Positions 1-10,162 of a DNA stretch of 10,162 nt are shown here, piece by piece. The notes below the pieces were generated by a model. The model did no database searches. It saw nothing but the letters and a program-made list of their open reading frames with translations, and had not been told where the DNA came from. The stretch lies in IMG/VR virus record IMGVR_UViG_2537561712_000026. One strand, written 5' to 3'. Made by a program: the position numbers and the translations under genes. Within the stretch, counting starts at the first letter, position 1. Each line of letters begins with the position of its first letter. The stretch comes from a virus (lineage: Duplodnaviria > Heunggongvirae > Uroviricota > Caudoviricetes).

Positions 1-1362
1 ATGTTTAAACCGGAACTCCTTTCCCCGGCGGGAACGCTGAAAAATATGCGTTACGCTTTCGCTTATGGCGCAGATGCTGTTTATGCGGGCCAGCCGCGTT
101 ACTCCCTGCGTGTGCGCAACAACGAATTCAACCACGAAAACCTTCAGCTCGGCATCAATGAAGCCCACGCGCTGGGGAAAAAGTTTTATGTCGTGGTCAA
201 CATTGCACCGCACAACGCCAAGCTGAAAACCTTTATCCGTGACCTGAAACCGGTGGTGGAAATGGGGCCGGATGCGCTGATTATGTCCGATCCAGGGCTG
301 ATTATGCTGGTGCGTGAGCACTTCCCTGAAATGCCGATCCATCTCTCGGTACAGGCTAACGCCGTGAACTGGGCGACGGTGAAATTCTGGCAGCAAATGG
401 GACTGACCCGCGTGATCCTCTCTCGCGAGCTGTCGCTGGAAGAGATTGAAGAGATCCGCAATCAGGTGCCGGATATGGAGATCGAGATCTTCGTTCACGG
501 CGCACTGTGCATGGCCTACTCCGGTCGCTGCCTGCTCTCTGGCTATATCAACAAGCGCGATCCGAACCAGGGTACCTGCACCAACGCCTGCCGCTGGGAG
601 TACAACGTCCAGGAAGGGAAAGAAGATGACGTTGGCAACATCGTACACAAGTACGAGCCGATTCCGGTGCAAAATGTTGAGCCGACGCTGGGTATCGGCG
701 CGCCAACCGACAAAGTGTTTATGATCGAAGAAGCCCAGCGTCCGGGCGAGTATATGACCGCGTTTGAAGATGAGCACGGCACTTACATCATGAACTCGAA
801 AGATCTGCGCGCCATCGCCCATGTAGAACGCCTGACCAAAATGGGCGTGCATTCGCTGAAAATCGAAGGCCGTACTAAATCTTTCTACTATTGCGCACGC
901 ACCGCACAGGTTTATCGTAAAGCTATCGATGATGCCGCTGCGGGCAAACCGTTCGATACCAGCCTGCTGGAAACTCTGGAAGGTCTGGCGCATCGTGGCT
1001 ATACCGAAGGTTTCCTGCGTCGTCATACTCACGACGATTATCAGAACTACGAATACGGTTATTCAGTTTCTGACCGCCAGCAGTTTGTTGGTGAGTTTAC
1101 CGGTGAGCGCAAGGGGGACCTCGCGGCGGTAGCGGTGAAAAATAAATTCTCCGTTGGCGACAGCCTTGAGCTGATGACGCCGCAAGGCAACATTAACTTT
1201 ACCCTTGAGCACATGGAAAACGCCAAAGGCGAAGCTATGCCGGTAGCACCAGGCGATGGTTATACTGTGTGGCTCCCGGTGCCGCAGGATCTTGAGCTAA
1301 ATTACGCGCTGCTGATGCGTAATTTCTCCGGGGAAACTACGCGTAACCCCCACGGTAAGTGA
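1..1362 (+). CDS. rlhA: U32-family peptidase-like protein YegQ/RlhA (23S rRNA 5-hydroxycytidine synthase), complete
   Basis: 453-aa ORF starting at base 1. Translation recognised from memory as E. coli YegQ, same length, and its position immediately upstream of cyaR matches the K-12 order yegQ-cyaR-ogrK. Not database-verified. Confidence 0.88.
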   Translation: MFKPELLSPAGTLKNMRYAFAYGADAVYAGQPRYSLRVRNNEFNHENLQLGINEAHALGKKFYVVVNIAPHNAKLKTFIRDLKPVVEMGPDALIMSDPGLIMLVREHFPEMPIHLSVQANAVNWATVKFWQQMGLTRVILSRELSLEEIEEIRNQVPDMEIEIFVHGALCMAYSGRCLLSGYINKRDPNQGTCTNACRWEYNVQEGKEDDVGNIVHKYEPIPVQNVEPTLGIGAPTDKVFMIEEAQRPGEYMTAFEDEHGTYIMNSKDLRAIAHVERLTKMGVHSLKIEGRTKSFYYCARTAQVYRKAIDDAAAGKPFDTSLLETLEGLAHRGYTEGFLRRHTHDDYQNYEYGYSVSDRQQFVGEFTGERKGDLAAVAVKNKFSVGDSLELMTPQGNINFTLEHMENAKGEAMPVAPGDGYTVWLPVPQDLELNYALLMRNFSGETTRNPHGK

Positions 1363-1396
1363 TTAATTTCGATTATTTTTCCCGGATGGAAAATTC

Positions 1397-1446
1397 TTAG
1401 AAACCGATCACATACAGCTGCATTTATTAAGGTTATCATCCGTTTC
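1397..1446 (+). promoter_or_regulatory. cyaR promoter: candidate CRP half-site pair plus -10 element
   Basis: TTAGAAACCGATCACA at 1397..1412 (reverse complement TGTGATCGGTTTCTAA, resembling TGTGA-N6-TCACA) is centred about 42 bp upstream of the presumed cyaR 5' end. TATCAT at 1434..1439 is a plausible -10. CRP dependence of cyaR is established knowledge; the exact site assignment is my reading. Confidence 0.5.
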
Positions 1447-1533
1447 GCTGAAAAACATAACCCATAAAATGCTAGCTGTACCAGGAACCACCTCCTTAGC
1501 CTGTGTAATCTCCCTTACACGGGCTTATTTTTT
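1447..1533 (+). ncRNA. cyaR: CyaR (RyeE) Hfq-dependent small RNA
   Basis: Sequence GCTGAAAAACATAACCCATAAAATGCTAGCTGTACCAGGAACCACCTCCTTAGCCTGTGTAATCTCCCTTACACGGGCTTATTTTTT matches my recollection of cyaR. It contains the CCTCCTTA seed-like motif and ends in a hairpin (CCTGTGTAA...TTACACGGG) followed by a T-run. It sits between yegQ and ogr as in K-12. Confidence 0.8.
1507..1533. other. P2-type attachment core (prophage/host junction, attL or attR)
   Basis: AATCTCCCTTACACGGGCTTATTTTTT is the reverse complement of the 27-bp P2 att core as I remember it (AAAAAATAAGCCCGTGTAAGGGAGATT). It lies exactly between host cyaR and phage ogr, which is where attP sits in P2 (ogr-attP-int). Confidence 0.65.
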
Positions 1534-1574
1534 ACGCGTAATACAATGAAATAAAAGGATTTATTTCTGGTCAC

Positions 1575-1592
1575 GTCCACATATTGACCACA
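1575..1592 (-). promoter_or_regulatory. Possible integrase arm-type binding sites (direct repeats TGTGGAC / TGTGGTC, 11-bp spacing)
   Basis: On the minus strand TGTGGTC (1592..1586) and TGTGGAC (1581..1575) are direct repeats one helical turn apart in the att arm between core and ogr. They resemble the P2 Int arm-site motif as I recall it. Confidence 0.35.
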
Positions 1593-1597
1593 TCGAC

Positions 1598-1630
1598 AAA
1601 AAAAGCCCCTCAACTGAGGGGCTTTCTGTT
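1598..1630 (-). terminator. Rho-independent terminator downstream of ogr
   Basis: Minus-strand sequence AAAGCCCCTCAGTTGAGGGGCTTTTTTTG: 8-bp GC-rich stem (1604..1611 / 1615..1622) followed by a T7 run, directly 3' of the ogr stop at 1636. Confidence 0.65.
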
Positions 1631-1635
1631 TGTAA

Positions 1636-1854
1636 TTACATCCACATAATTTGCTGCCCTGACGGCAACGGGTGCGGTCTTACGGCGTGGACTTCTCCCG
1701 GCTTCACGATGTATCGCTGTACCGACTCATAAGTGATGAACGTGGCGCTGCAATTCACGTTCTGACACTGGTGATAACGCTCTTTTGTCGTGTCAGTGAT
1801 ATAGCGACTTGTACGCGCATGTGCGGCATGCTGGCATAAAGGACAATGAAACAT
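1636..1854 (-). CDS. ogr: Ogr late-gene transcriptional activator (zinc-finger, 72 aa)
   Basis: Translation MFHCPLCQHAAHARTSRYITDTTKERYHQCQNVNC... has the CxxC...CxxC zinc-binding motif and is recognised as P2 Ogr / K-12 OgrK. AGAGG Shine-Dalgarno 8 nt upstream of the ATG at 1854. The ORF track's 93-aa version uses an upstream in-frame ATG that I consider unlikely. Confidence 0.88.
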   Translation of the reverse strand: MFHCPLCQHAAHARTSRYITDTTKERYHQCQNVNCSATFITYESVQRYIVKPGEVHAVRPHPLPSGQQIMWM

Positions 1855-1935
1855 CGCGAGCACCTCTTCCGGTTTTGTTGATGGTGCCATTTTAGTTAAT
1901 TTATCCTTATAAAACAAACAGATAAAATAAAAACA

Positions 1936-3099
1936 TCATTCATCATCTTCTGTTTCGTATTCCACATCAGAAAGCCTGACCTCAAGCTCTAAGGACGTCG
2001 TGAAGCCGCTATTATTCAGAAAATGTGTCACCTTAGTGATGGTCCAGTCCTGCTCGTCTATGACGCGCTTAAAGCCTGACACTCTGACCGGTGTTTCCGT
2101 GTAAATATCTGCACGACCGGTAGCCAGGATGATGGAGAACTCCGCAACGCCCCGTTGCAGTTTGTCCCACTTCGCCTGAGCAGCACGCATGGCCTGTGCT
2201 TTCGTGGCATATACCGTGGTCAGGGCAAAAACGTTGTCAGCCTCACCGGCCATGTATTCACCTTCGCGCGCTTCCGGTACTTTTGGCGCTTTCTTCTGCC
2301 TGACCGGTTTCGCTTTCGGGTGCTCCAGTGCGCGCAGGTGTTTCTCTTTCTTTTTGCGTTTCAGTTTTACCTTCTGCTTTTGCGGTTTCGGGTCTTTGGT
2401 GTGTAACCACTTTGCCGTTACACCGGTATAGGCTCCACGGTCAGCAATCGCAAAATGATGGCGGTCGCCGTCGCTGCGGGTTATGGTGACCTGCGGGATT
2501 TTTTTACCGCTGGCCGTCACCCCCTGCCCCGCTTTGAGAAACAACAGTTTTCCCATTTTTACCGAGACCTCACCGCCGTTGCGTTCAGCAAGGCGGGTCA
2601 GGAATTTTGCATCAGACTCCTGCGACTGGTCGATGTGCGGGATTTTAATTCCGGCCAGTGACGGCGCGACACTGGCTTCCAGCCTGTTACGGGAGGCTAT
2701 TGCCTCAACAATCGCACCGAGCGTGGTGTCATGCCAGGAGTCTTCACGGCGGGAATTGAGCGTCCCGCGAAAATCTGCACTCCGGGCGCGGATGGTGACC
2801 ACATCCGGCGCGCCCCGGTGTTCAACCTCATCAACGGTAAATTTCCCTTTGCATACCAGGGCAAAACCTTTCCAGCCGATATACACCGTCAGGACAGCGC
2901 CACGAATCGGCAGCCCGACCTGCCCGTCGGCATCGTTCAGTTCAATATCAAGCTGGTCAGCCTCAAAGCCCCGGTTATCCGTCAGAGTCATGCTCATCAG
3001 ACGGTCGCTGATATTGCCGGTAATATCCCTGCTGTCGAGCATCAGCATGTAATCCGGCGTCAGCGTACTGCCTGCATCAAATGTCAGTGCATCCAGCAT
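1936..3099 (-). CDS. D: Tail/baseplate protein D (phage late control gene D family)
   Basis: 387 aa, the same length as P2 gpD. Position between U and ogr matches P2. Start ATG overlaps the U stop in a TAATG arrangement. Confidence 0.88.
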   Translation of the reverse strand: MLDALTFDAGSTLTPDYMLMLDSRDITGNISDRLMSMTLTDNRGFEADQLDIELNDADGQVGLPIRGAVLTVYIGWKGFALVCKGKFTVDEVEHRGAPDVVTIRARSADFRGTLNSRREDSWHDTTLGAIVEAIASRNRLEASVAPSLAGIKIPHIDQSQESDAKFLTRLAERNGGEVSVKMGKLLFLKAGQGVTASGKKIPQVTITRSDGDRHHFAIADRGAYTGVTAKWLHTKDPKPQKQKVKLKRKKKEKHLRALEHPKAKPVRQKKAPKVPEAREGEYMAGEADNVFALTTVYATKAQAMRAAQAKWDKLQRGVAEFSIILATGRADIYTETPVRVSGFKRVIDEQDWTITKVTHFLNNSGFTTSLELEVRLSDVEYETEDDE

Positions 3100-3578
3100 T
3101 ATCCCGCCCCCGTCATACCTGTGAATTTAGTCGCCATACTGCCAGCCTTACCGATGAGCGATTCCGCCTGTTTACCGATATCGCCATAAAGCGCGGCCAG
3201 TGGTTCGTCAACGCGGGTGAGCGACAGCGTAAAATCAATTTTTCGGGGTGTGCCGTCTGCAAAGAAAATACTCCCTGTTTCACTCACCCTGCTGATGACA
3301 TACATGCCGTAAATCATGCCGGTGCCATCCAGCAACGGCCACGCCCGACCTTCCTCTGCCATCAGCCTGAGCGTGGTCATCGTCAGCTTGCCGCCGGTCA
3401 GTTCGGGATAAAGCACACCGGCCAGCGTCATGTTTTCCTCGCCAACGCCGAGAAACTGGTAGGCATCCCGTTTACCGATACGGGAATTTGACGGCCAGCG
3501 ATAATCTGATTCACGCTGCATGGTCTGGTGTGGCAGCGTCTGGCGCATAAAAACAAACATACCTAACGCGAGCATCAT
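3099..3578 (-). CDS. U: Tail protein U
   Basis: 159 aa, the same length as P2 gpU, in synteny between T and D. Assigned by length and position rather than by direct sequence recognition. Confidence 0.8.
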   Translation of the reverse strand: MMLALGMFVFMRQTLPHQTMQRESDYRWPSNSRIGKRDAYQFLGVGEENMTLAGVLYPELTGGKLTMTTLRLMAEEGRAWPLLDGTGMIYGMYVISRVSETGSIFFADGTPRKIDFTLSLTRVDEPLAALYGDIGKQAESLIGKAGSMATKFTGMTGAG

Positions 3579-3592
3579 TTTTCGTCACCTCC

Positions 3593-6040
3593 TTAACCGT
3601 CATGCATCATGCTGGCACGGGCGCGCGCACGTTTATCCCGCTCGTATTTTTCGAGCGCATCCTGTAACTGGCGGTCAAGCTGTGTCCCCGGCGCAGTACC
3701 ACCCGTCAGGCTGATGTGATATTCGTTTTTACTCTGGTCCACATAAGAGCGGCCAGCCGGTGCCGTGACCGGCTGATAAGCCTGATAGCCTGCATAAGAG
3801 CTGGTCGCCGGAATATAACCACCGGTGCCATACGTGGCGGCATGAGTTCTGGCGGCGGTCTGGTCAAGTGTGTCTGACTCTTTGTTGATAACACCGAGTT
3901 TTTCCAGTACCCAGTCAATACCACTGCGCAGTTTGTTGAACGCATTAAGCGGCAGCATCAACGCGTCAGCCAGTGCCTGCCCGAACATGACGCCCGTGTC
4001 ACGGCAACGGTTCAGGGTGTCCTGGGTGGCTTTGACCGGGGCAATCAGTTTTTTAAACCACTGCCACGCGGCCTGTAACTTTTCACCCAGCCAGTCAAAC
4101 AGCGGCTTAAGTGGCGTGAACAGTTCCCCCACCGGCGCAAATGCAGCTTTCAGCCCTTCAACCACACCGCCAAAGAATGCGCTGACAGGCTCCCAGTATT
4201 TACGGATAAGCAACGCCCCGGCGACAATTGCAGCCACCACGGCCACAACCGGCCAGCTAATCGCCCCGATGGCCGTCATAACAGCACTGCCAACCGTCGT
4301 GAAGATTGCCCCCATTGCGCCTGCTGCCGCGATGATGGCATTAATGCCGGTGATAACCGGCCAGGCTACAAGACCAATTGCACCGATGATGCCAATAAGC
4401 GCCAGTGCGCCACCGACAATAAGGCCGATGGTTGACGCCAGTGATTTGTTTTTCTGGATCCAGCCGTCGAGTTTTAACACATACTTTGTGGCCGTCTGCG
4501 TGAGATTACGCAGTGCGCCTTCCTGTTGGTCAAACAGGTCAGTCCCCACCGCCTCATAAGCGGACTGAAACTCCTTAAAGTCACCGCCGAGGTTGTCCTG
4601 CATGATATTTACCAGCTCTGCGGTCTTCCCGTCTGAGGCTTTAAACGCAGCGGTCAGTTTGTCCAGCTTTCCGGTTGAGGCGGCAGTCATCAGCACGGCG
4701 GCGGCTGAACTGGCCTCCTCCCCGAAAATGGTTTTCATGTATTCAGCCTGCTGGGCAGTACCGAGCCGGTTTTTCTCAAAACTGGCCTGCATTTCTTTCA
4801 GAATGGTAAATATTGGTCGGGTATTCCCCTTGCTGTCTGAGGTTTTCACTCCAAGCTCTTTGAGTGCATCCCATGCTTTTCCCGTCGGTGCCTGCAGGCG
4901 ACTTAACACGGCACGGCTTCCCGTCCCCGCCATTGAGCCTGTGATTTTTGCATCATGCAGCGCCCCGACCATTGCGGCGGTTTCTTCAATGCTGACACCG
5001 GCATTTTTTGCCACAGGTGCGGCATAGGTCAGCGCATCGCTCATACCGTCAAAATCGGCGGCGGTTTTGTTCATCGTCATGGAGAGAACATCCCCGATAT
5101 GAGCAACCTTATCGTTTGAAAGCTGAAAGGCAGATTTCATCCCCATCAGCAGGGCGGCGTTTTCTTCCATCGTGCGACGGTTCGCCAGCGCCATATTCAG
5201 CGTGACCGGCGTTGCCGCCTGAATGGCATCAACATCCCCACCCGCTTTCGCGATGATAATCTGTGCACCGGCCGCATCATCCGCCGAGGCGGCGGTATTG
5301 TCGCCGAGCTGGCGCGCCTGCTTGCGTAGCGCGGCCATTTCGGCGGAGTCTTTTGCCACACCGAGCACGGCCTGTAATTCTGAGTTTTTCTGCGCAAATT
5401 CATAACCGGGCATCAGCAGCTTAACACCGGCCATCGTTCCCGCCGCCGCAATCCCCACACCGGCAGCGCCCACTGAGGCCATATTTCCGGCCAGCTCCTT
5501 TCCTGCCTGATAGCGCTGTTTTACTGCGTTAAGTTTTGCCTGTTGCGCACTGACACGCGCCAGCGCGTCACGCTGCCGGTTAAGCTGTGCGGTGGTTTCA
5601 CTGATACGGTTTTTCAGCCCCAGCTCATCATGTGCAAGATTGCGGGTATTAATTCCCACAGCGGCCAGTTCCCGCTGCTGGCGTTTAACGGAATCCGTCA
5701 GGCGGTTATATTTCGCCTGTAAGTCCTCCGCCGCACGCTTTGCGGATTCCAGCACTTTCGCCTGAGCACGGGTCGGACGTTCGGTGTTTTTAAACTGTGT
5801 GGCAAGGGCTTCGGCCTCCTGCCGTGCCTTTTCAAGTGCATGACCAGTCACGGCGAGCTGTGCGCTGGTCTTGCGGAATCCCTCAATACGGGATGCCTGC
5901 CCGTTCAGCTCGCGCAGTGATTTTTGTGTTTCCCGGATATCCCCCGACAGCGACTTACTCGCTGTGCGGATGGATTTAAACGGGCGGGATGCCTGGTCAA
6001 CAGCCCTGAGCAATACCTGTAATTTTACATTGTTACTCAT
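3593..6040 (-). CDS. T: Tail tape measure protein T
   Basis: 815 aa (P2 gpT length). Coiled-coil-rich N-terminal half, a Gly/Ala/Ile-rich hydrophobic central segment, and the expected position downstream of E/E'. Confidence 0.9.
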   Translation of the reverse strand: MSNNVKLQVLLRAVDQASRPFKSIRTASKSLSGDIRETQKSLRELNGQASRIEGFRKTSAQLAVTGHALEKARQEAEALATQFKNTERPTRAQAKVLESAKRAAEDLQAKYNRLTDSVKRQQRELAAVGINTRNLAHDELGLKNRISETTAQLNRQRDALARVSAQQAKLNAVKQRYQAGKELAGNMASVGAAGVGIAAAGTMAGVKLLMPGYEFAQKNSELQAVLGVAKDSAEMAALRKQARQLGDNTAASADDAAGAQIIIAKAGGDVDAIQAATPVTLNMALANRRTMEENAALLMGMKSAFQLSNDKVAHIGDVLSMTMNKTAADFDGMSDALTYAAPVAKNAGVSIEETAAMVGALHDAKITGSMAGTGSRAVLSRLQAPTGKAWDALKELGVKTSDSKGNTRPIFTILKEMQASFEKNRLGTAQQAEYMKTIFGEEASSAAAVLMTAASTGKLDKLTAAFKASDGKTAELVNIMQDNLGGDFKEFQSAYEAVGTDLFDQQEGALRNLTQTATKYVLKLDGWIQKNKSLASTIGLIVGGALALIGIIGAIGLVAWPVITGINAIIAAAGAMGAIFTTVGSAVMTAIGAISWPVVAVVAAIVAGALLIRKYWEPVSAFFGGVVEGLKAAFAPVGELFTPLKPLFDWLGEKLQAAWQWFKKLIAPVKATQDTLNRCRDTGVMFGQALADALMLPLNAFNKLRSGIDWVLEKLGVINKESDTLDQTAARTHAATYGTGGYIPATSSYAGYQAYQPVTAPAGRSYVDQSKNEYHISLTGGTAPGTQLDRQLQDALEKYERDKRARARASMMHDG

Positions 6041-6206
6041 TCGTGTTTCCGCTTCGCCTGAGCGCCTTTTCGCGCCATGTGATGAGTTCGGTCAGGCTCA
6101 TGGGATACAGTTCTGATGGCGGCCAGTGAAATACCACTGCCACATCCGCCATCAGGTCATCGACCGAGAGATTTTTCGGAAACGTCACTGCACCGAGTTC
6201 GGCGAC
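6033..6206 (-). CDS. E': E' extension of the tail assembly chaperone, reached by programmed -1 frameshift from E (E+E' fusion 142 aa)
   Basis: Slippery heptamer TTTTTTG on the minus strand (plus 6206..6212) lies 6 codons before the E stop. Reading on in the -1 frame gives 57 more residues (VAELGAVTFPKNLSVDDLMADVAVVFHWPPSELYPMSLTELITWREKALRRSGNTNE) and stops at TAA 6033..6035, overlapping the T start (ATGAGTAA). 85 + 57 = 142 aa, the P2 E+E' length. Confidence 0.8.
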   Translation of the reverse strand, partial: VAELGAVTFPKNLSVDDLMADVAVVFHWPPSELYPMSLTELITWREKALRRSGNTNE

Positions 6207-6460
6207 AAAAAACCGACCACCTTACCGGCCAGCGCCACAAGGTCAGGCAGTTCCAGCGCGGCGACCTCCTGTTCGGTCAGCATCGGTGCCGTCATGCGCG
6301 GCAGCACTTTAATCAGTGCATCGACTTCGGAGTTCGCGACCGCAGCCAGACTGACACCGCGCAGCGTCCCGGCATTGGGTTTCATCAGCGTGACCTGTTC
6401 GATAACCTGCTCACCACGCTTGACCGGATTGTCCAGGGTAATCACATTTTCTTTGTTCAT
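6185..6460 (-). CDS. E: Tail assembly chaperone E
   Basis: 91 aa, MNKENVITLDNPVKRGEQ...; length and sequence recognised as P2 gpE; located between FII and T. Confidence 0.88.
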   Translation of the reverse strand: MNKENVITLDNPVKRGEQVIEQVTLMKPNAGTLRGVSLAAVANSEVDALIKVLPRMTAPMLTEQEVAALELPDLVALAGKVVGFLSPNSVQ

Positions 6461-6488
6461 GGTTTTCTCACTTCTGAATCAGGGTTAA

Positions 6489-6509
6489 CCGGTCAGCCTG
6501 GCTGACCGG
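6489..6509 (-). other. Intercistronic stem-loop between FII and E (no U-tract)
   Basis: CCGGTCAG-CCTGG-CTGACCGG: perfect 8-bp inverted repeat with a 5-nt loop in the 56-bp FII-E spacer. Followed by TTAACCC rather than a T-run, so not a classical intrinsic terminator. Confidence 0.4.
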
Positions 6510-6516
6510 ATGAAAA

Positions 6517-7035
6517 TCACAGGCCGATATTGCGGCGGTGTTGCTCCAGCCGGTCGACGCCGTTCACCTTCTCAATCATGTTGATGGTGTCGATTTCGAC
6601 CAGCTCCTTACCGTCCATCGTCAGCCGGAAATAGGTGCAGACCACGGAGATTTTCGACTCGGTGTCTTCTCCCTGTTTACCCTCGCCGGTGTCGATTTCT
6701 TTCTGACGGCCACGCATGACCACCTCGACGGCCACCGTTTCGCCGGTATCGTCGCGCTGGTAAGAGCCTGCAAAACGAATCGGTACGGCATCCACACCGG
6801 TTGCGGCGTAAAGCTCCCAGATAACCGAATCCGGGAAGCCACCGAGCGACCACTCCATTGACAGCGCATCGTCATCAAGGCCGAGGTCTACCGGTGCGCT
6901 GCCATTCATCCCCGCACCGCGATAGTTTTCGAGCTTACGGGTCAGTTTTGGCAGCGTGACGGACTTCGCGACGCCCTGATAGCTGTAGCCGTTCAGAAAG
7001 ACGTTCATTAACTTGAGTTTGCGCGGCATTGCCAT
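6517..7035 (-). CDS. FII: Major tail tube protein FII
   Basis: 172 aa (P2 gpFII length); sequence recognised; AAGGAG Shine-Dalgarno upstream; follows FI with a 12-bp gap. Confidence 0.9.
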   Translation of the reverse strand: MAMPRKLKLMNVFLNGYSYQGVAKSVTLPKLTRKLENYRGAGMNGSAPVDLGLDDDALSMEWSLGGFPDSVIWELYAATGVDAVPIRFAGSYQRDDTGETVAVEVVMRGRQKEIDTGEGKQGEDTESKISVVCTYFRLTMDGKELVEIDTINMIEKVNGVDRLEQHRRNIGL

Positions 7036-7047
7036 CGGTCAGGCTCC

Positions 7048-8238
7048 TTAATTGCTGTTAACCGAGGTGACCAGATTTGCCAGGTATTTATCGGTGATAC
7101 GCTGGCGCAGGGTCAGGTTTTCAAGAGGAGGTACCGGTGTATAGTCGTAGTCGATATACAGTTTTCCGGCCTTGAGGGTTTCCGCATCGCTGGATTCTTC
7201 GCTGAACCAGCAGGTCGCATCCACGATATAGCCGTTTGTTTTCAGCTCACGGAATTTGGCATTGATGCCGTCAACGATGTCGCGAATCAGCGTTGCGGTG
7301 ATGGGCTTGTCCACCGCCCACATGTGCGCCTCAGCCATCGTGTCGGCCAGCACCTGCGCGGTGCGGGTGTAGTTTTCAAAGAGGAACAGCGGGTCATCAG
7401 AGCAGGTACGGTTACCCCAGAAGCGGAAACCGTCGCGGCGAATCAGCGTAGTGACGCCTGACTCGTTAAGCAGGTCAGCATCGGTGCCGGACTCCTGCAA
7501 ATCCCAGAATACAGATGCGCTGATGCCGTTAACACCGTTTACCCCGACGTTGGACAGCGTTTTATGCCAGCCCTGCTCCTGGTCGATTTTAGCGCGCAGA
7601 CCCAGCGCACGGGCGGTGGCATACGCGGTGGCGGTGGTGCTGCTGACCGTATCCCATGCGAGGAAATCCGGCCAGATGACCATCAGCTCACGCTGGCTGA
7701 AATTCTGGCGGTAGGCTTTCACCTCGGAAATGGTTTTACAGCCCCATGCGCTGATATACCCGAAAGCGCGCAGCTTCTGACAGACTGATGCCAGTGCAAC
7801 AGCCACCTCTTTGGTGTCCAGTCCCGGCACGCCGAGAATACGCGGTTTAACACCGGTTACCGACTCTGCCGCCAGCAGGGCTTTCAGTCCGGTATACTGA
7901 CCGTTTTCGTCAGTGGTGCCGATGATATTGGAAACGGTCTGCGCGAGTTTCGTTTCTTCGTCGTCGCCGGTGCCGTCTTCAACACGCACGACAACGGTAA
8001 CCGGTTTTGACTGGTCAGCGATGGCCTGCAACGATGCCGCCAGCGTGCCTTTTTTACCGGCCTTTGCAATTGCGCTCTGCACATTGGTAATCAGCACAGG
8101 TTTATTGAGGGGGAAGGTTTCCGCATCCGCATCGCTGGCCGTGCAGACCATGCCGACAATGGCGGTGGATACGGTGGAAATGACGCGGGTGCCGTCGTTA
8201 ATCTCCAGCACCTGCACGCCGTGATGATAATCACTCAT
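7048..8238 (-). CDS. FI: Contractile tail sheath protein FI
   Basis: 396 aa (P2 gpFI length); sequence recognised as P2-type tail sheath; first gene of the FI-FII-E-T-U-D operon. Confidence 0.9.
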   Translation of the reverse strand: MSDYHHGVQVLEINDGTRVISTVSTAIVGMVCTASDADAETFPLNKPVLITNVQSAIAKAGKKGTLAASLQAIADQSKPVTVVVRVEDGTGDDEETKLAQTVSNIIGTTDENGQYTGLKALLAAESVTGVKPRILGVPGLDTKEVAVALASVCQKLRAFGYISAWGCKTISEVKAYRQNFSQRELMVIWPDFLAWDTVSSTTATAYATARALGLRAKIDQEQGWHKTLSNVGVNGVNGISASVFWDLQESGTDADLLNESGVTTLIRRDGFRFWGNRTCSDDPLFLFENYTRTAQVLADTMAEAHMWAVDKPITATLIRDIVDGINAKFRELKTNGYIVDATCWFSEESSDAETLKAGKLYIDYDYTPVPPLENLTLRQRITDKYLANLVTSVNSN

Positions 8239-8335
8239 CCGTTTAACTCCGTGGTTAATGGGTGAGTGATATTTTCAGTTGTGCCGGAGATGTCAGGCTA
8301 TTTGTCCCGGTTGGCTAAGGGATGACACAATTTAT
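8239..8335 (-). promoter_or_regulatory. Expected Ogr-dependent late promoter region for the FI operon (element not resolved)
   Basis: Position only: P2 late promoter P_F lies immediately upstream of FI. I could find only imperfect TGT-N12-ACA-like dyads here (for example TGT-N12-CCA on the minus strand around 8311..8329). The region overlaps the 3' end of the invertase gene. Confidence 0.3.
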
Positions 8336-8891
8336 TCTTTGTCGCTGATGAGGGGAATTTTTTATAGAGCGTGGACAGGCCAATATCAAAAATCAGCGCC
8401 ACACGTTGACGAGATTCCCCCGCAGCCAGCAACCGTCCGACCTGCTCCCACTCACTCGTGGTGAGTTTCGGTCGTCTGCCACCAATACGACCTTTGGCTC
8501 TGGCCGCTTCCAGTCCGGCGCGTGTCCGCTCGACAATGAGTTCTCGCTCCATTTCTGCCAGGGCCCCCATCACATGAAAGAAAAAGCGCCCCATCGGCGT
8601 GCTGGTATCAATAGCATCCGTCAGGCTGCGAAAATTAACGCCGCGTTCGCGCAGTTCCTCAACCAGAATGACCAGATGCCGCATACTACGCCCCAGCCTA
8701 TCCAGCTTCCAGACTACCAGAGTGTCACCTGCTGATAATGTTCTGAGCAGTTTTTTCAGTCCCGGTCGGTCGGACTTCGTGCCGCTGATTTTATCCTCAA
8801 AAATCAGCTCACATCCTGCACACTCCAGCGCATTACGCTGCAATTCCGTGTTCTGGTCATTTGTTGACACGCGTACATAGCCAATAAGCAT
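8298..8891 (-). CDS. Serine DNA invertase, Hin/Gin/Cin/Pin family
   Basis: Translation MLIGYVRVSTNDQNTELQRNAL...VVWKLDRLGRSMRHL...MGRFFFHVMGALAEMERELIVERTRAGL...GRIGGRRPKLT...STLYKK closely resembles E. coli Pin and Mu Gin, with the catalytic Ser in YVRVSTNDQ and a C-terminal helix-turn-helix. Start chosen at the ATG at 8891 (197 aa); ATG 8897 is an alternative. The ORF track's 265-aa version (to 9095) has a 66-residue N-terminal extension I consider non-coding. Confidence 0.85.
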   Translation of the reverse strand: MLIGYVRVSTNDQNTELQRNALECAGCELIFEDKISGTKSDRPGLKKLLRTLSAGDTLVVWKLDRLGRSMRHLVILVEELRERGVNFRSLTDAIDTSTPMGRFFFHVMGALAEMERELIVERTRAGLEAARAKGRIGGRRPKLTTSEWEQVGRLLAAGESRQRVALIFDIGLSTLYKKFPSSATKNKLCHPLANRDK

Positions 8892-8946
8892 GAGCATCTC
8901 CCTGAATAAAAACCGGAGATGATGCCAGTTACCCGTTATTTCTGCA

Positions 8947-8972
8947 TTTTCATAAACGTTGGTTTGGGAGAA
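8947..8972. other. Candidate 26-bp inversion crossover site (hix/gix/cix-like), left border of the invertible segment
   Basis: TTTTCATAAACG-TT-GGTTTGGGAGAA has the 12-2-12 architecture and the AAACC/GGTTT-type inner half-site motifs of hixL and gixL as I recall them (TTCTTGAAAACC-AA-GGTTTTTGATAA, TTCCTGTAAACC-GA-GGTTTTGGATAA). It lies 56 bp upstream of the invertase start and inside the open tail-fibre frame. Confidence 0.5.
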
Positions 8973-9445
8973 GCGGCAAAACGGGATGTGGGGACAGGGG
9001 AAAATCAGCCACTCCGCCGACAGGCTGGCTGAAATGCAACGGGGCGGCTTTTTCTGCTGAAGAATACCCGGAACTGGCAAAGGTTTACCCGACAAATAAA
9101 TTGCCTGATTTACGTGGTGAGTTTATTCGTGGCTGGGATGACGGACGTGGAGTGGATAACGGAAGGGGATTATTGACGCTTCAGGACGGTGCGATTGTCA
9201 GTCATAACCACTATTGGGGAATCTGGACTTCACGAACTAACGACCAGACTCTGGAAAGTTTTACAGGCACCACGATTTTAAAACAAATCACGCCCCTGTC
9301 TCCGGCCATTAACTTCGATAATTACCCAATTCCCAACCCGGCTATTACAGAGGGTGGTGTTGTTGCGGCAACGACTAAACCTGCAGGTGCGAATGAAACA
9401 CGCCCACGAAATGTCGCTTTTAACTATATTGTGAGGGCTGCATAA
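8960..9445 (+). CDS. Tail-fibre C-terminal variable (receptor-binding) cassette; no start codon or promoter in this orientation
   Basis: The frame is open from 8906 to the TAA at 9443..9445 with no in-frame ATG (the track starts it at a TTG at 9101). It encodes ...GWLKCNGAAFSAEEYPELAKVYPTNKLPDLRGEFIRGWDDGRG...RPRNVAFNYIVRAA, resembling the C-terminal region of P2 H and Mu S (AYPKLAVAYP...LPDMRG...NIAFNYIVRLA). It begins at the candidate crossover site. Confidence 0.6.
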   Translation, partial: WFGRSGKTGCGDRGKSATPPTGWLKCNGAAFSAEEYPELAKVYPTNKLPDLRGEFIRGWDDGRGVDNGRGLLTLQDGAIVSHNHYWGIWTSRTNDQTLESFTGTTILKQITPLSPAINFDNYPIPNPAITEGGVVAATTKPAGANETRPRNVAFNYIVRAA

Positions 9446-10047
9446 TGAATAACGCAGAATTAAACAGTGAATTAATTGCCACTATGGCAGGAGAAATTAC
9501 TGTTTATAACTTTGATGTCATGAGTCGGGAATATATTTCAGCTTCAACTGAATATCTTGCTATTGGTGTCGGCATTCCGGCATATTCCTGTTTAGATGCC
9601 CCAGGCGCATACAAAGCTGGTTATGCAATCTGCCGTTCTGCAGATTTTAACTCATGGGAATATGTGCCAGACCATCGCGGTGAAATCGTCTTTAGCACCG
9701 AAACAGGAGAATCAAAAGAAATCACCGCTCCGGGTGATTACCCTGATAATACAACCACTATCGCCCCGTTAACGCCATACGATAAATGGGATGGTGAGAA
9801 ATGGGTGACGGATACCGAAGCACAGCATAGCGCCGCAGTAGAAGCGGCAGAAACACAACGCCAGTCGCTGATTGATACTGCAATGGCTTCCATTAGTCTG
9901 ATTCAGCTGAAATTACAGGCCGGACGGAAGCTGACGCAGGCAGAAACCAACCGACTTAACACGGTGCTGGATTACATTGACGCGGTGACGGCAACAGATA
10001 CCAGCACCGCGCCGGATGTCATCTGGCCTGAACTGCCGGAGGCGTAG
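9445..10047 (+). CDS. Tail-fibre assembly (chaperone) protein, Tfa / P2 G / Mu U family
   Basis: 200 aa. ATG overlaps the upstream TAA (TAATG coupling). C-terminus ...LDYIDAVTATDTSTAPDVIWPELP has the conserved Tfa C-terminal motif. Confidence 0.8.
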   Translation: MNNAELNSELIATMAGEITVYNFDVMSREYISASTEYLAIGVGIPAYSCLDAPGAYKAGYAICRSADFNSWEYVPDHRGEIVFSTETGESKEITAPGDYPDNTTTIAPLTPYDKWDGEKWVTDTEAQHSAAVEAAETQRQSLIDTAMASISLIQLKLQAGRKLTQAETNRLNTVLDYIDAVTATDTSTAPDVIWPELPEA

Positions 10048-10162
10048 GCCATTCAATATCTGGCGCACTGGCGGTATCGACCAGCTCCAGTGCGTCCAGA
10101 TAATCCAGCCACAAATTATATTGTGCCAGTTCCTCACCTTTCAGATGGTAATGGATGGATGA
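10019..10162 (-). CDS. Second tail-fibre assembly protein, C-terminal 47 codons only (5' end beyond window)
   Basis: Minus-strand frame reads ...HYHLKGEELAQYNLWLDYLDALELVDTASAPDIEWPTPPAVQAR with stop at 10019..10021. This is the same conserved Tfa C-terminal motif, convergent with and overlapping the plus-strand tfa by 29 bp. It is absent from the ORF track because no start codon lies inside the window. Confidence 0.65.
   Translation of the reverse strand, partial: SSIHYHLKGEELAQYNLWLDYLDALELVDTASAPDIEWPTPPAVQAR

Follow-up and report, generated by a model that had tools for sequence, protein, structure and literature searches.

The right arm of phage P2 (AF063097 / NC_001895), from attP to the late promoter PF, is the closest described relative of most of the DNA analyzed here. 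Beyond PF, P2 carries fun(Z) and a non-invertible H-G pair of fiber genes. The Mu Gin, P1 Cin, and e14 Pin switches each combine a serine invertase, 26-bp crossover sites with a central dinucleotide, and a segment that contains alternative fiber C-termini together with assembly genes. Phase-variable invertible fiber loci in P2-like Escherichia coli prophages have already been published (PMC4272514). In E. coli K-12, the chromosomal site considered below holds a cryptic P2 remnant (ogrK-yegZ). Finally, phage pro483 (KR073661) and the prophage found next to yegQ in the O157:H7 lineage (strain 319, NZ_CP018241; EC4115) have the same architecture as the window, through the invertase and the fiber cassette. 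Phage pro483 and its kin are deposited as phage genome records.

The window, namely the whole stretch of 10,162 nucleotides, is judged from its sequence to be the attR (right-hand) end of a prophage of the P2 family (Peduovirus) that has the P2 att site and an invertible fiber switch, with a probability of about 0.93. It covers about a quarter of one prophage, and the genes for capsid, lysis, replication, and immunity fall outside. The window shares with P2 the gene order, gene lengths, overlaps, frameshift site, terminator, att core, and P arm, whereas P2 homology ends at 8318, within the activator-site spacer of PF, and an invertase and an invertible cassette take the place of fun(Z) and the H-G pair. 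The lineage of the window has the components of the Mu, P1, and e14 switches, although the carrier is a P2-type myovirus, unlike these three elements, and a single crossover site lies within the window. A P2-family prophage end at this site is real but ordinary and already known, and nothing in the window is novel. The genome is thereby marked as that of a present or past lysogen of a P2-like phage, a very common one of the O157 lineage, at cyaR/yegQ; beyond getting the annotation right, this is of small importance.

Attachment site and host flank

The features at the host-prophage boundary are as follows.

1-1362, plus strand: yegQ/trhP, host gene of 453 aa on the left flank of the att site (Pfam Peptidase_U32 and U32_C; RefSeq annotation of strain 319 and others)
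1445-1530, plus strand: cyaR (RyeE), host sRNA gene of 86 nt (Rfam RF00112, model positions 1-85 of 85)
1507-1533, no strand: attR core AATCTCCCTTACACGGGCTTATTTTTT, 27 nt, the same sequence as the attP core annotated in P2
1534-1625, minus strand: P arm with putative IHF and Int arm sites, from colinearity with P2 AF063097 and the attR-attP alignment
About 1602-1625, minus strand: putative terminator common to ogr and the F operon, colinear with P2 AF063097

With the RF00112 covariance model, for which the gathering score is 47, cyaR scores 100.7 bits. Its fold has a terminator hairpin followed by a run of six U, and the hairpin and U tract reach 1533. Weak Rfam matches to Phe_leader, isrJ, and the n-myc IRES in the terminator region are below threshold and were dismissed. 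The attR core coincides with the loop, the 3' half, and the U tract of this terminator. The first-pass annotation had started the element at 1507, which is indeed the base at which the 27-nt att core of P2 begins; the junction between prophage and host was thus placed exactly. Its statement that every intergenic gap was too short for a gene does not hold, as the 86-nt cyaR, whose terminator is the att core, was overlooked. It was likewise silent on the coincidence of terminator and core, on the fun(Z) slot, and on the mosaic nature of the fiber cassette.

In strain 319 the 27-mer core is present in exactly two copies, directly repeated at a distance of 31,960 bp, whereas an unoccupied O157 site (the empty attB) has it once. 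Integration would be carried out by a P2-type tyrosine integrase into this core, between yegQ and yegR. Because attB and the core are the same sequence, integration should restore an intact cyaR, and occupancy of the site may thus leave the sRNA gene whole, the att core being its terminator. The placement of P2 attB in the cyaR terminator comes from the sequence analysis here. The cyaR/yegQ site is presumably locI, the preferred P2 attachment site. Among the papers searched, there was neither one that places P2 attB in the cyaR terminator nor the original locI paper.

P2-type tail module

Inward from the P arm, the late genes of the window occupy the minus strand.

1636-1854, minus strand: ogr, late-gene activator, 72 aa, 100% identical to P2 Ogr (Pfam Ogr_Delta)
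1936-3099, minus strand: D, tail/baseplate hub, 387 aa, 98.4% identical to P2 gpD at equal length (Pfam Phage_GPD)
3099-3578, minus strand: U, tail protein, 159 aa, 97.5% identical to P2 gpU (Pfam Phage_P2_GpU)
3593-6040, minus strand: T, tape measure, 815 aa, 98.3% identical to P2 gpT (Pfam PhageMin_Tail)
6033-6460, minus strand: E/E' locus, with E (91 aa, 98.9% identical to P2) at 6185-6460 and E' at 6033-6188 (Pfam Phage_TAC_7)
6517-7035, minus strand: FII, tail tube, 172 aa, 100% identical to P2 gpFII (Pfam Phage_tube)
7048-8238, minus strand: FI, tail sheath, 396 aa, 98.0% identical to P2 gpFI (three sheath Pfam domains)
8239-8335, minus strand: putative PF late promoter region, from alignment with P2 and pro483, including the transcription start and activator site annotated in P2

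Between 1507 and 8318, the window and P2 are 97.0% identical at the DNA level over 6.8 kb, and the P2-type late block ogr-D-U-T-E/E'-FII-FI is colinear, with the P2 lengths and overlaps kept (e.g., the U stop overlaps the D start). The coordinates of every gene from ogr to FI equal those of the AF063097 annotation minus a constant 993, which indicates that no indel is present from ogr through FI. Ogr and all seven tail genes are uninterrupted ORFs in the window; the lengths of Ogr, D, U, T, E, FII, and FI are the same as in P2, and each protein falls in the expected Pfam family. A 93-aa ORF with a TTG start at ogr was rejected as an over-extension. The exact FI protein is found in 5,798 blocks of a public assembly index.

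The E plus E' product would be 142 aa long, by a predicted -1 frameshift at the slippery run GGTTTTTTG (6206-6214). This run and its flanks are the same as in P2, whose annotation marks the frameshift site. At PF, the P2-like part extends to 8318, a position within the activator-binding element's spacer, and the TGT-N12-CCA pattern is retained. The PF region overlaps the final codons of the invertase gene. By analogy with P2, the ogr product would be a zinc-finger activator of late promoters, and the F operon (FI, FII, E/E', T, U, and D) would be transcribed from the Ogr-dependent PF. Its products would be the contractile sheath, the tube, the tape measure with its frameshift chaperones, and the tail-hub proteins. 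By sequence, the late-gene parts appear to be in working order, and the functions given to the parts here follow from near-identity to P2 and Mu Gin.

The first-pass annotation had described D, U, T, E, E', FII, and FI as all present at P2 lengths, and the constant offset, the overlaps, and the frameshift signal bear this out. Divergence from P2 beyond what equal lengths suggest, which it had named as evidence against its reading, was not found (97.5-100% for proteins and 97.0% for DNA). Also correct were its views that no cargo gene is inserted between ogr and FI, and that the element is P2-like but not necessarily P2 itself, given its invertase. It had extended the tail module over 1507-10162; the P2-like part holds to 8318, whereas 8319-10162 is not P2-like, lies outside the sheath/tube module, and comprises the invertase and the tail-fiber cassette.

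Invertase and invertible fiber switch

The window from 1546 to 10145 is 95.1% identical in DNA sequence to pro483, and the part upstream of FI contains a known arrangement of an invertase, a crossover site, and an invertible tail-fiber cassette.

8298-8891, minus strand: predicted serine DNA invertase of the Gin/Cin/Pin type, 197 aa (Pfam Resolvase and HTH_7)
8947-8972, no strand: putative left crossover site TTTTCATAAACG TT GGTTTGGGAGAA, with two mismatches to the 26-bp Hin/Gin/Cin/Pin consensus

The invertase matches the Mu Gin structure 3uj3 over residues 1-182 (E = 1e-93), and it has an N-terminal catalytic domain (Ser9) with a YVRVSTNDQ motif and a C-terminal HTH. The annotation of pro483 calls it a DNA invertase, and that of strain 319 a recombinase. 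A 265-aa ORF with a TTG start at this gene was rejected as an over-extension. The gene sits in the slot held by fun(Z) in P2. This slot upstream of FI has a probable fiber-switching invertase and no defence gene; the earlier view that the window has no novel accessory or defence system is upheld.

The window contains a single consensus-like crossover site (8947-8972), compared with two in strain 319, where the inverted partner lies at 12850-12875 of the retrieved locus (L003), beyond the point that corresponds to the window end. The pair of sites is found at both cassette ends in strain 319, pro483, and a further assembly (L005). A third crossover site, as in the shufflon-like arrangement of EPEC (PMC4272514), was considered and rejected on these counts. 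The Gin-like invertase would flip a segment of roughly 1.9 kb between the two 26-bp sites, and inversion would join the constant part of H to either a gp53-like or a Collar-type C-terminal tip, each tip being paired with its own assembly chaperone. The expected outcome is host-range switching. Both orientations are present in public assemblies, in which H measures 399 aa with the gp53-like tip and 439 aa with the Collar tip.

Sister prophage in strain 319

Strain 319 matches window positions 1-8973 apart from two SNPs, and its prophage is complete, with 31,960 bp between the att cores. It contains genes for capsid, terminase, portal, lysis, and replication, as well as cox, C, int, and attL. 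No structural, lysis, or replication gene of P2 is missing from it, and the set includes A and B for replication and Q-P-O-N-M-L for capsid and terminase. Compared with the P2 proteins, Int is 100%, Cox 83.5%, and C 64.6% identical; P2-type C and Cox are its lysogeny switch genes. In addition, this sister prophage differs from P2 in having an ABC-3C locus in place of old/tin. The P2 C repressor is not SOS-sensitive, and induction of the present element by SOS or mitomycin C would not be expected, a view that transfers P2 behavior to a C only 64.6% identical to that of P2. The fiber gene H of strain 319 is called a pseudogene by PGAP, yet the 1,200-nt ORF is whole, and a broken H was therefore rejected.

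Mosaic fiber cassette

Downstream of the crossover site, the window cassette mixes pieces of the two orientation states in a mosaic that corresponds to neither canonical state.

8973-9008, plus strand: linker segment 'b' (ending in AAKRDVGTGENQ), 100% identical up to 9008 to assembly L005, which is in state B
9009-9445, plus strand: putative Collar-type alternative C-terminal module of the tail fiber, in silent orientation, 100% identical to L005 7433-7869
9445-10047, plus strand: predicted tail-fiber assembly protein, 200 aa, likely partner of the Collar-type tip (Pfam Caudo_TAP)
10019-10145, minus strand: 3' end of a second tail-fiber assembly gene, 41 codons plus stop, cut at 10145/10146
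10146-10162, plus strand: terminal 17 nt TGGTAATGGATGGATGA, with no contiguous match

Linker 'b' usually leads into the gp53-like tip; in its place, another linker, of 39 nt, is found in strain 319 and pro483. In the window it is joined to the Collar-type tip with the frame broken, and the ORF from 8919 is 37 codons long, ending right past the junction. The module at 9009-9445 has the opposite relative orientation to that in L005; it is not in frame with the crossover site, and just a 114-aa ORF is left, while the homologous ORF in other assemblies has the Pfam Collar domain. At the second junction, identity to strain 319, pro483, and L005 breaks off at 10145. The translation of 10019-10145 ends in LKGEELAQYNLWLDYLDALELVDTASAPDIEWPTPPAVQAR before the stop, and an unrelated SSIHYH comes ahead of it. 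The terminal TGGTAATGGATGGATGA differs at one position from the start of the gp53-like fiber tip (..GDGWMK); an IS insertion at 10146 was rejected on this fit, and the 17 nt are presumably also unlike the ends of IS1, IS629, IS3, and IS5. The assembly index has 4,791 blocks with a protein identical to the 200-aa assembly protein.

The relatives in strain 319 and pro483 have neither the join of 'b' to Collar nor the break at 10145/10146. Both odd junctions were absent from 5,426 complete E. coli genomes in megablast and blastn searches. Exact-pattern scans of GTDB species genomes and JGI metagenomes gave no match, a scan of IMG/VR hit only an unrelated low-GC phage, a pattern search across all retrieved loci found none, and the 48-aa and 37-aa junction ORFs had no exact match in protein look-ups. 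A look-up of the 114-aa ORF led to one Logan contig, which was rejected, being a copy in the canonical state A that contains a sequencing frameshift.

The mosaic may be either an assembly artifact or a real defect. The former is somewhat favored: in a culture of mixed orientation, an assembler or polisher may have taken a chimeric path, in which case the actual prophage would have a canonical form and probably be complete. Both orientations are found among public assemblies of this prophage, many draft contigs break in or at the edges of the cassette (L006, L007, and L016-L021), and one draft contig ends in a palindromic artifact. Moreover, the first patch begins exactly at the crossover site and is the exact sequence of the other orientation. 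However, the 10145/10146 junction is interior to the segment, away from the inversion boundary, the last 17 nt have a mismatch to the expected sequence, and overlaps of 4-8 nt would seem too short for a k-mer graph join.

Alternatively, the prophage of this genome may be defective through an illegitimate rearrangement in the cassette, with the Collar tip out of frame and the second assembly gene truncated, an explanation held only tentatively. The element would then make no infectious particles in at least one orientation, perhaps both, with the sheath/tube module intact. Consistent with this, 1-9008 equals the state-B L005 and 9005-10145 equals L005 in the opposite orientation, the 37-codon ORF ends directly after the junction, the assembly gene is severed at 10145, and the last 17 nt are one nucleotide off the gp53-like tip. 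Furthermore, the junctions have only TCAG / CTTTCAGA microhomology rather than crossover-like sites. On the other hand, neither junction is present in the complete genomes or the other collections searched, all else is base-perfect compared with thousands of O157-lineage assemblies, and the remainder of the cassette is outside the window. It is doubtful that the junctions at 9008/9009, where linker 'b' meets the Collar-type tip, and at 10145/10146, where the assembly gene meets a gp53-like fragment, record non-canonical recombination at TCAG-type microhomology within the Gin-type segment; if true, such cassettes would shuffle or decay beyond plain two-state inversion, and a real mosaic would have one fiber variant and one assembly chaperone broken. 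The window does not show the intact prophage suggested in the first-pass annotation: its tail module is full-length, but its cassette is scrambled, with one fiber tip out of frame and an assembly gene cut at 10145/10146. Invertible cassettes are spots where assembly and automatic annotation fail, as for H in strain 319.

A tailocin (an R-type bacteriocin) that the host has domesticated from a P2-like phage and kept is very improbable, even though only tail, fiber, and regulator genes are visible in the window and P2-like tail modules are known ancestors of R-type pyocins, given the precise attR junction with the P2 core and P arm, the sister prophage with genes from capsid to int and attL, and the deposition of related elements such as pro483 as phage genomes.

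Distribution of the tail module and the K-12 remnant

The tail module is present in about 29% of the 5,426 complete E. coli genomes, and it adjoins yegQ in roughly 12%. A K-12-type genome has the order yegQ, ogrK, a 213-nt D fragment, and yegR, in agreement with the earlier claim that K-12 keeps only a remnant here. This remnant has the chromosomal site, the attR side, and ogr in common with the window, whereas ogrK and 213 nt of D are all that it retains and the window has the entire right arm.

Tail module and comparison with P2

The window carries one end of a P2-family prophage, the end with the tail genes, and novel cargo is absent. The first-pass annotation's finding is real, correctly placed, and right in its main reading, and the biology of the element is already known and very common. 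The host gene yegQ/trhP is followed by a 273-nt intergenic stretch, after which all genes up to 8238 lie on the minus strand.

Features of the window (coordinates, strand, description)
1-1362, plus, host gene yegQ/trhP; the window begins at its ATG
1636-1854, minus, ogr
1936-3099, minus, D
3099-3578, minus, U
3593-6040, minus, T
6033-6188, minus, E'
6185-6460, minus, E
6517-7035, minus, FII
7048-8238, minus, FI
8298-8891, minus, serine recombinase gene (197 aa)
9101-9445, plus, ORF, tail-fibre C-terminal fragment
9445-10047, plus, tail-fibre assembly gene (200 aa)
10019-10145, minus, second assembly gene, 3' end only, convergent with the first

Comparison with P2 had been proposed as a check. 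In a megablast search of 50,697 phage records, P2 (AF063097) has 97.0% identity across 1507-8318, and the P2-family relative Escherichia phage pro483 (KR073661) has 95.1% identity across 1546-10145. From ogr to FI, the annotated P2 coordinate of every feature equals the window coordinate plus 993, which indicates that the module contains no indel. The proteins encoded from ogr to FI have the same lengths as those of P2, as had been claimed for D, U, T, E, E', FII, and FI, with 97.5–100% amino acid sequence identity (Ogr 100%, D 98.4%, U 97.5%, T 98.3%, E 98.9%, FII 100%, and FI 98.0%), and each was assigned to its expected family (Pfam). For the -1 frameshift, the signal GGTTTTTTG and the flanking bases match P2 exactly, with a predicted E+E' product of 142 aa. 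The earlier observation on the module holds in all its details, and its description as free of cargo also stands, with zero inserted genes from ogr through FI.

Attachment site

The P2 match starts at 1507, exactly where the 27-nt P2 att core AATCTCCCTTACACGGGCTTATTTTTT begins. The junction was aligned with three other sequences, namely an O157:H7 site that carries no prophage, the attL end in E. coli strain 319 (NZ_CP018241, which has a sister prophage), and P2 attP (n = 4). The window reads host arm, core, and phage P arm, so its junction is attR. The attL side in strain 319 reads phage P' arm, core, and host arm, and this genome has exactly two copies of the att core, spaced 31,960 bp. The unoccupied O157:H7 site has only the core between yegQ and yegR, an interval that we take to be the preferred P2 attachment site (locI). 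A P2 remnant at this site in K-12 was reportedly described in the early 1990s. The gene order in a K-12-type genome (yegQ, ogrK, a 213-nt C-terminal fragment of D, and yegR) agrees with the earlier statement that K-12 keeps only ogrK and a truncated D.

The intergenic gaps had been judged too short to hide a gene. This judgement overlooked the sRNA gene cyaR (RyeE) at 1445-1530, which matches the full length of the Rfam model (100.7 bits versus a gathering score of 47). In the predicted fold, the cyaR terminator hairpin GCCUGUGUAAUCUCCCUUACACGGGC is followed by a U run, both within 1445-1533, and the 27-nt att core spans this U tract as well as the loop and 3' half of the hairpin stem. The att core is thus the end of the cyaR terminator, such that the phage integrates at the end of the sRNA gene and restores it. 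Other phages use tRNA genes alike, inserting at the end and rebuilding the gene. P2-type insertion at the end of cyaR has presumably been noted previously.

Departure from P2 and the invertible fibre cassette

The homology to P2 stops at 8318, within the spacer of the PF activator-binding (Ogr-binding) element. The TGT-N12-CCA outline of the PF element is conserved, and the recombinase gene runs into it with its final codons (LANRDK and stop), which lie in P2-homologous PF promoter DNA (region 8298-8335). In this slot P2 carries fun(Z) together with an H-G fibre pair that is fixed, whereas the window element has a Gin-like recombinase and an invertible cassette, in line with the earlier view that, given the invertase, the element is P2-like and not necessarily P2 itself. 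The recombinase is close to Mu Gin (E = 1e-93, residues 1-182) and contains the YVRVSTNDQ motif.

A 26-bp crossover site, TTTTCATAAACG TT GGTTTGGGAGAA, is located at 8947-8972. Its inverted partner is about 1.9 kb away, inside the tail-fibre gene H, in strain 319, pro483, and L005 (a public assembly with a state-B copy of the prophage). Both cassette states occur among public assemblies of the same prophage. In state A, H has 399 aa and a gp53-like tip; in state B, it has 439 aa and a Collar-type tip. The switch between the two sequences falls exactly on the central dinucleotide of the crossover site. The cassette segment is also the end point of many draft contigs. Phase-variable fibre inversion has been published for P2-like E. 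coli prophages (PMC4272514), and the invertase/fibre cassette is a known kind of system.

Several related copies have features of their own. The right crossover site of strain 319 (12850-12875 of its locus L003) has a C-to-T change beside the central dinucleotide relative to pro483 and L005. In O157:H7 TR01, a second invertible fibre cassette is found by pinE in a decayed prophage at about 310 kb on the chromosome (L004 5384-7407). Its crossover site and linker 'b' (the segment corresponding to window 8973-9008, which normally leads into the gp53-like tip) are identical to those of the window, and the two elements could be mutual invertase substrates or partners in homologous exchange. Moreover, a contig end of GCA_000461975.2 (L016 5039-5366) holds a pair of 54-aa ORFs in mirror image within the cassette, suggestive of a palindrome created by misassembly at the invertible segment.

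The fibre cassette of the window copy is anomalous and matches neither state A nor state B. Window 1-9008 and window 9005-10145 each have 100% identity to L005, the latter in the opposite relative orientation, and the last 17 nt (10146-10162) have no contiguous match, being one base off the start of the gp53-like tip. Linker 'b' is fused to the Collar-type tip with a register shift of 7 nt, and as a result the crossover-site ORF ends after 37 codons, compared with 177–178 aa in strain 319 and pro483. The second assembly gene is broken off 41 codons ahead of its stop. All that the junctions have in common with the canonical sequences is TCAG or CTTTCAGA. They do not look like crossover sites, and neither junction (9008/9009 or 10145/10146) was found in any other sequence searched, including 5,426 complete E. 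coli genomes, GTDB species genomes, JGI metagenomes, and IMG/VR. A genuine rearrangement is a somewhat less likely explanation than an artefact of assembly or polishing from a culture of mixed orientation, although the position of the second junction in the interior of the segment and the single mismatch in the last 17 nt call for caution.

Sister prophage in strain 319

The earlier suggestions of intactness and inducibility reach past the window, and the genes of strain 319 speak for the lineage, not for the source of the window. Strain 319 is identical to window 1-8973 except for two SNPs. Its element spans yegQ to yegR with a full P2 complement, including genes for baseplate, fibre, lysis, head, terminase, portal, replication, cox, C, and int. 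Judged on this strain, the prophage of the lineage looks complete. An ABC-three-component locus, comprising an AAA ATPase and two 'ABC-three component system' genes, separates gene A from the portal gene (L003 25747-29436), an interval known as the old/tin hotspot for defence genes in P2-like phages (PMC9122126). In RefSeq/PGAP, H of strain 319 appears as two pieces, a 'gp53-like domain' CDS plus a pseudogene. The gene is an uninterrupted 1,200-nt ORF (L003 12490-13689; 399 aa, the same length as in pro483), and the pseudogene call was rejected on this basis.

The lysogeny switch in strain 319 is of the P2 C/Cox type. Given that the SOS response does not induce P2, the mitomycin test proposed earlier is the wrong assay. 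Int is 100% identical to that of P2, Cox 83.5%, and C 64.6%; the divergence of C leaves some room for doubt about the predicted SOS insensitivity.

Frequency in E. coli

At least 80% of window 1000-8330 is present in 1,593 of the 5,426 complete E. coli genomes. The module is contiguous with yegQ in 5 of 40 evenly spaced rows, a sample that suggests adjacency in roughly one in eight genomes. At least 80% of window 1-2400 is found in 1,125 genomes, a count that includes K-12-type remnants, and the exact FI protein occurs in 5,798 blocks of a public assembly index. A P2-family module at yegQ is everyday content of E. coli genomes. In the E. coli C entry NZ_CP029371 (H128), 41% of the module is matched in two pieces adjoining yegQ, which contain ogrK, D, and tube and sheath fragments, suggesting that E. 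coli C holds a different, partly deleted remnant at this site.
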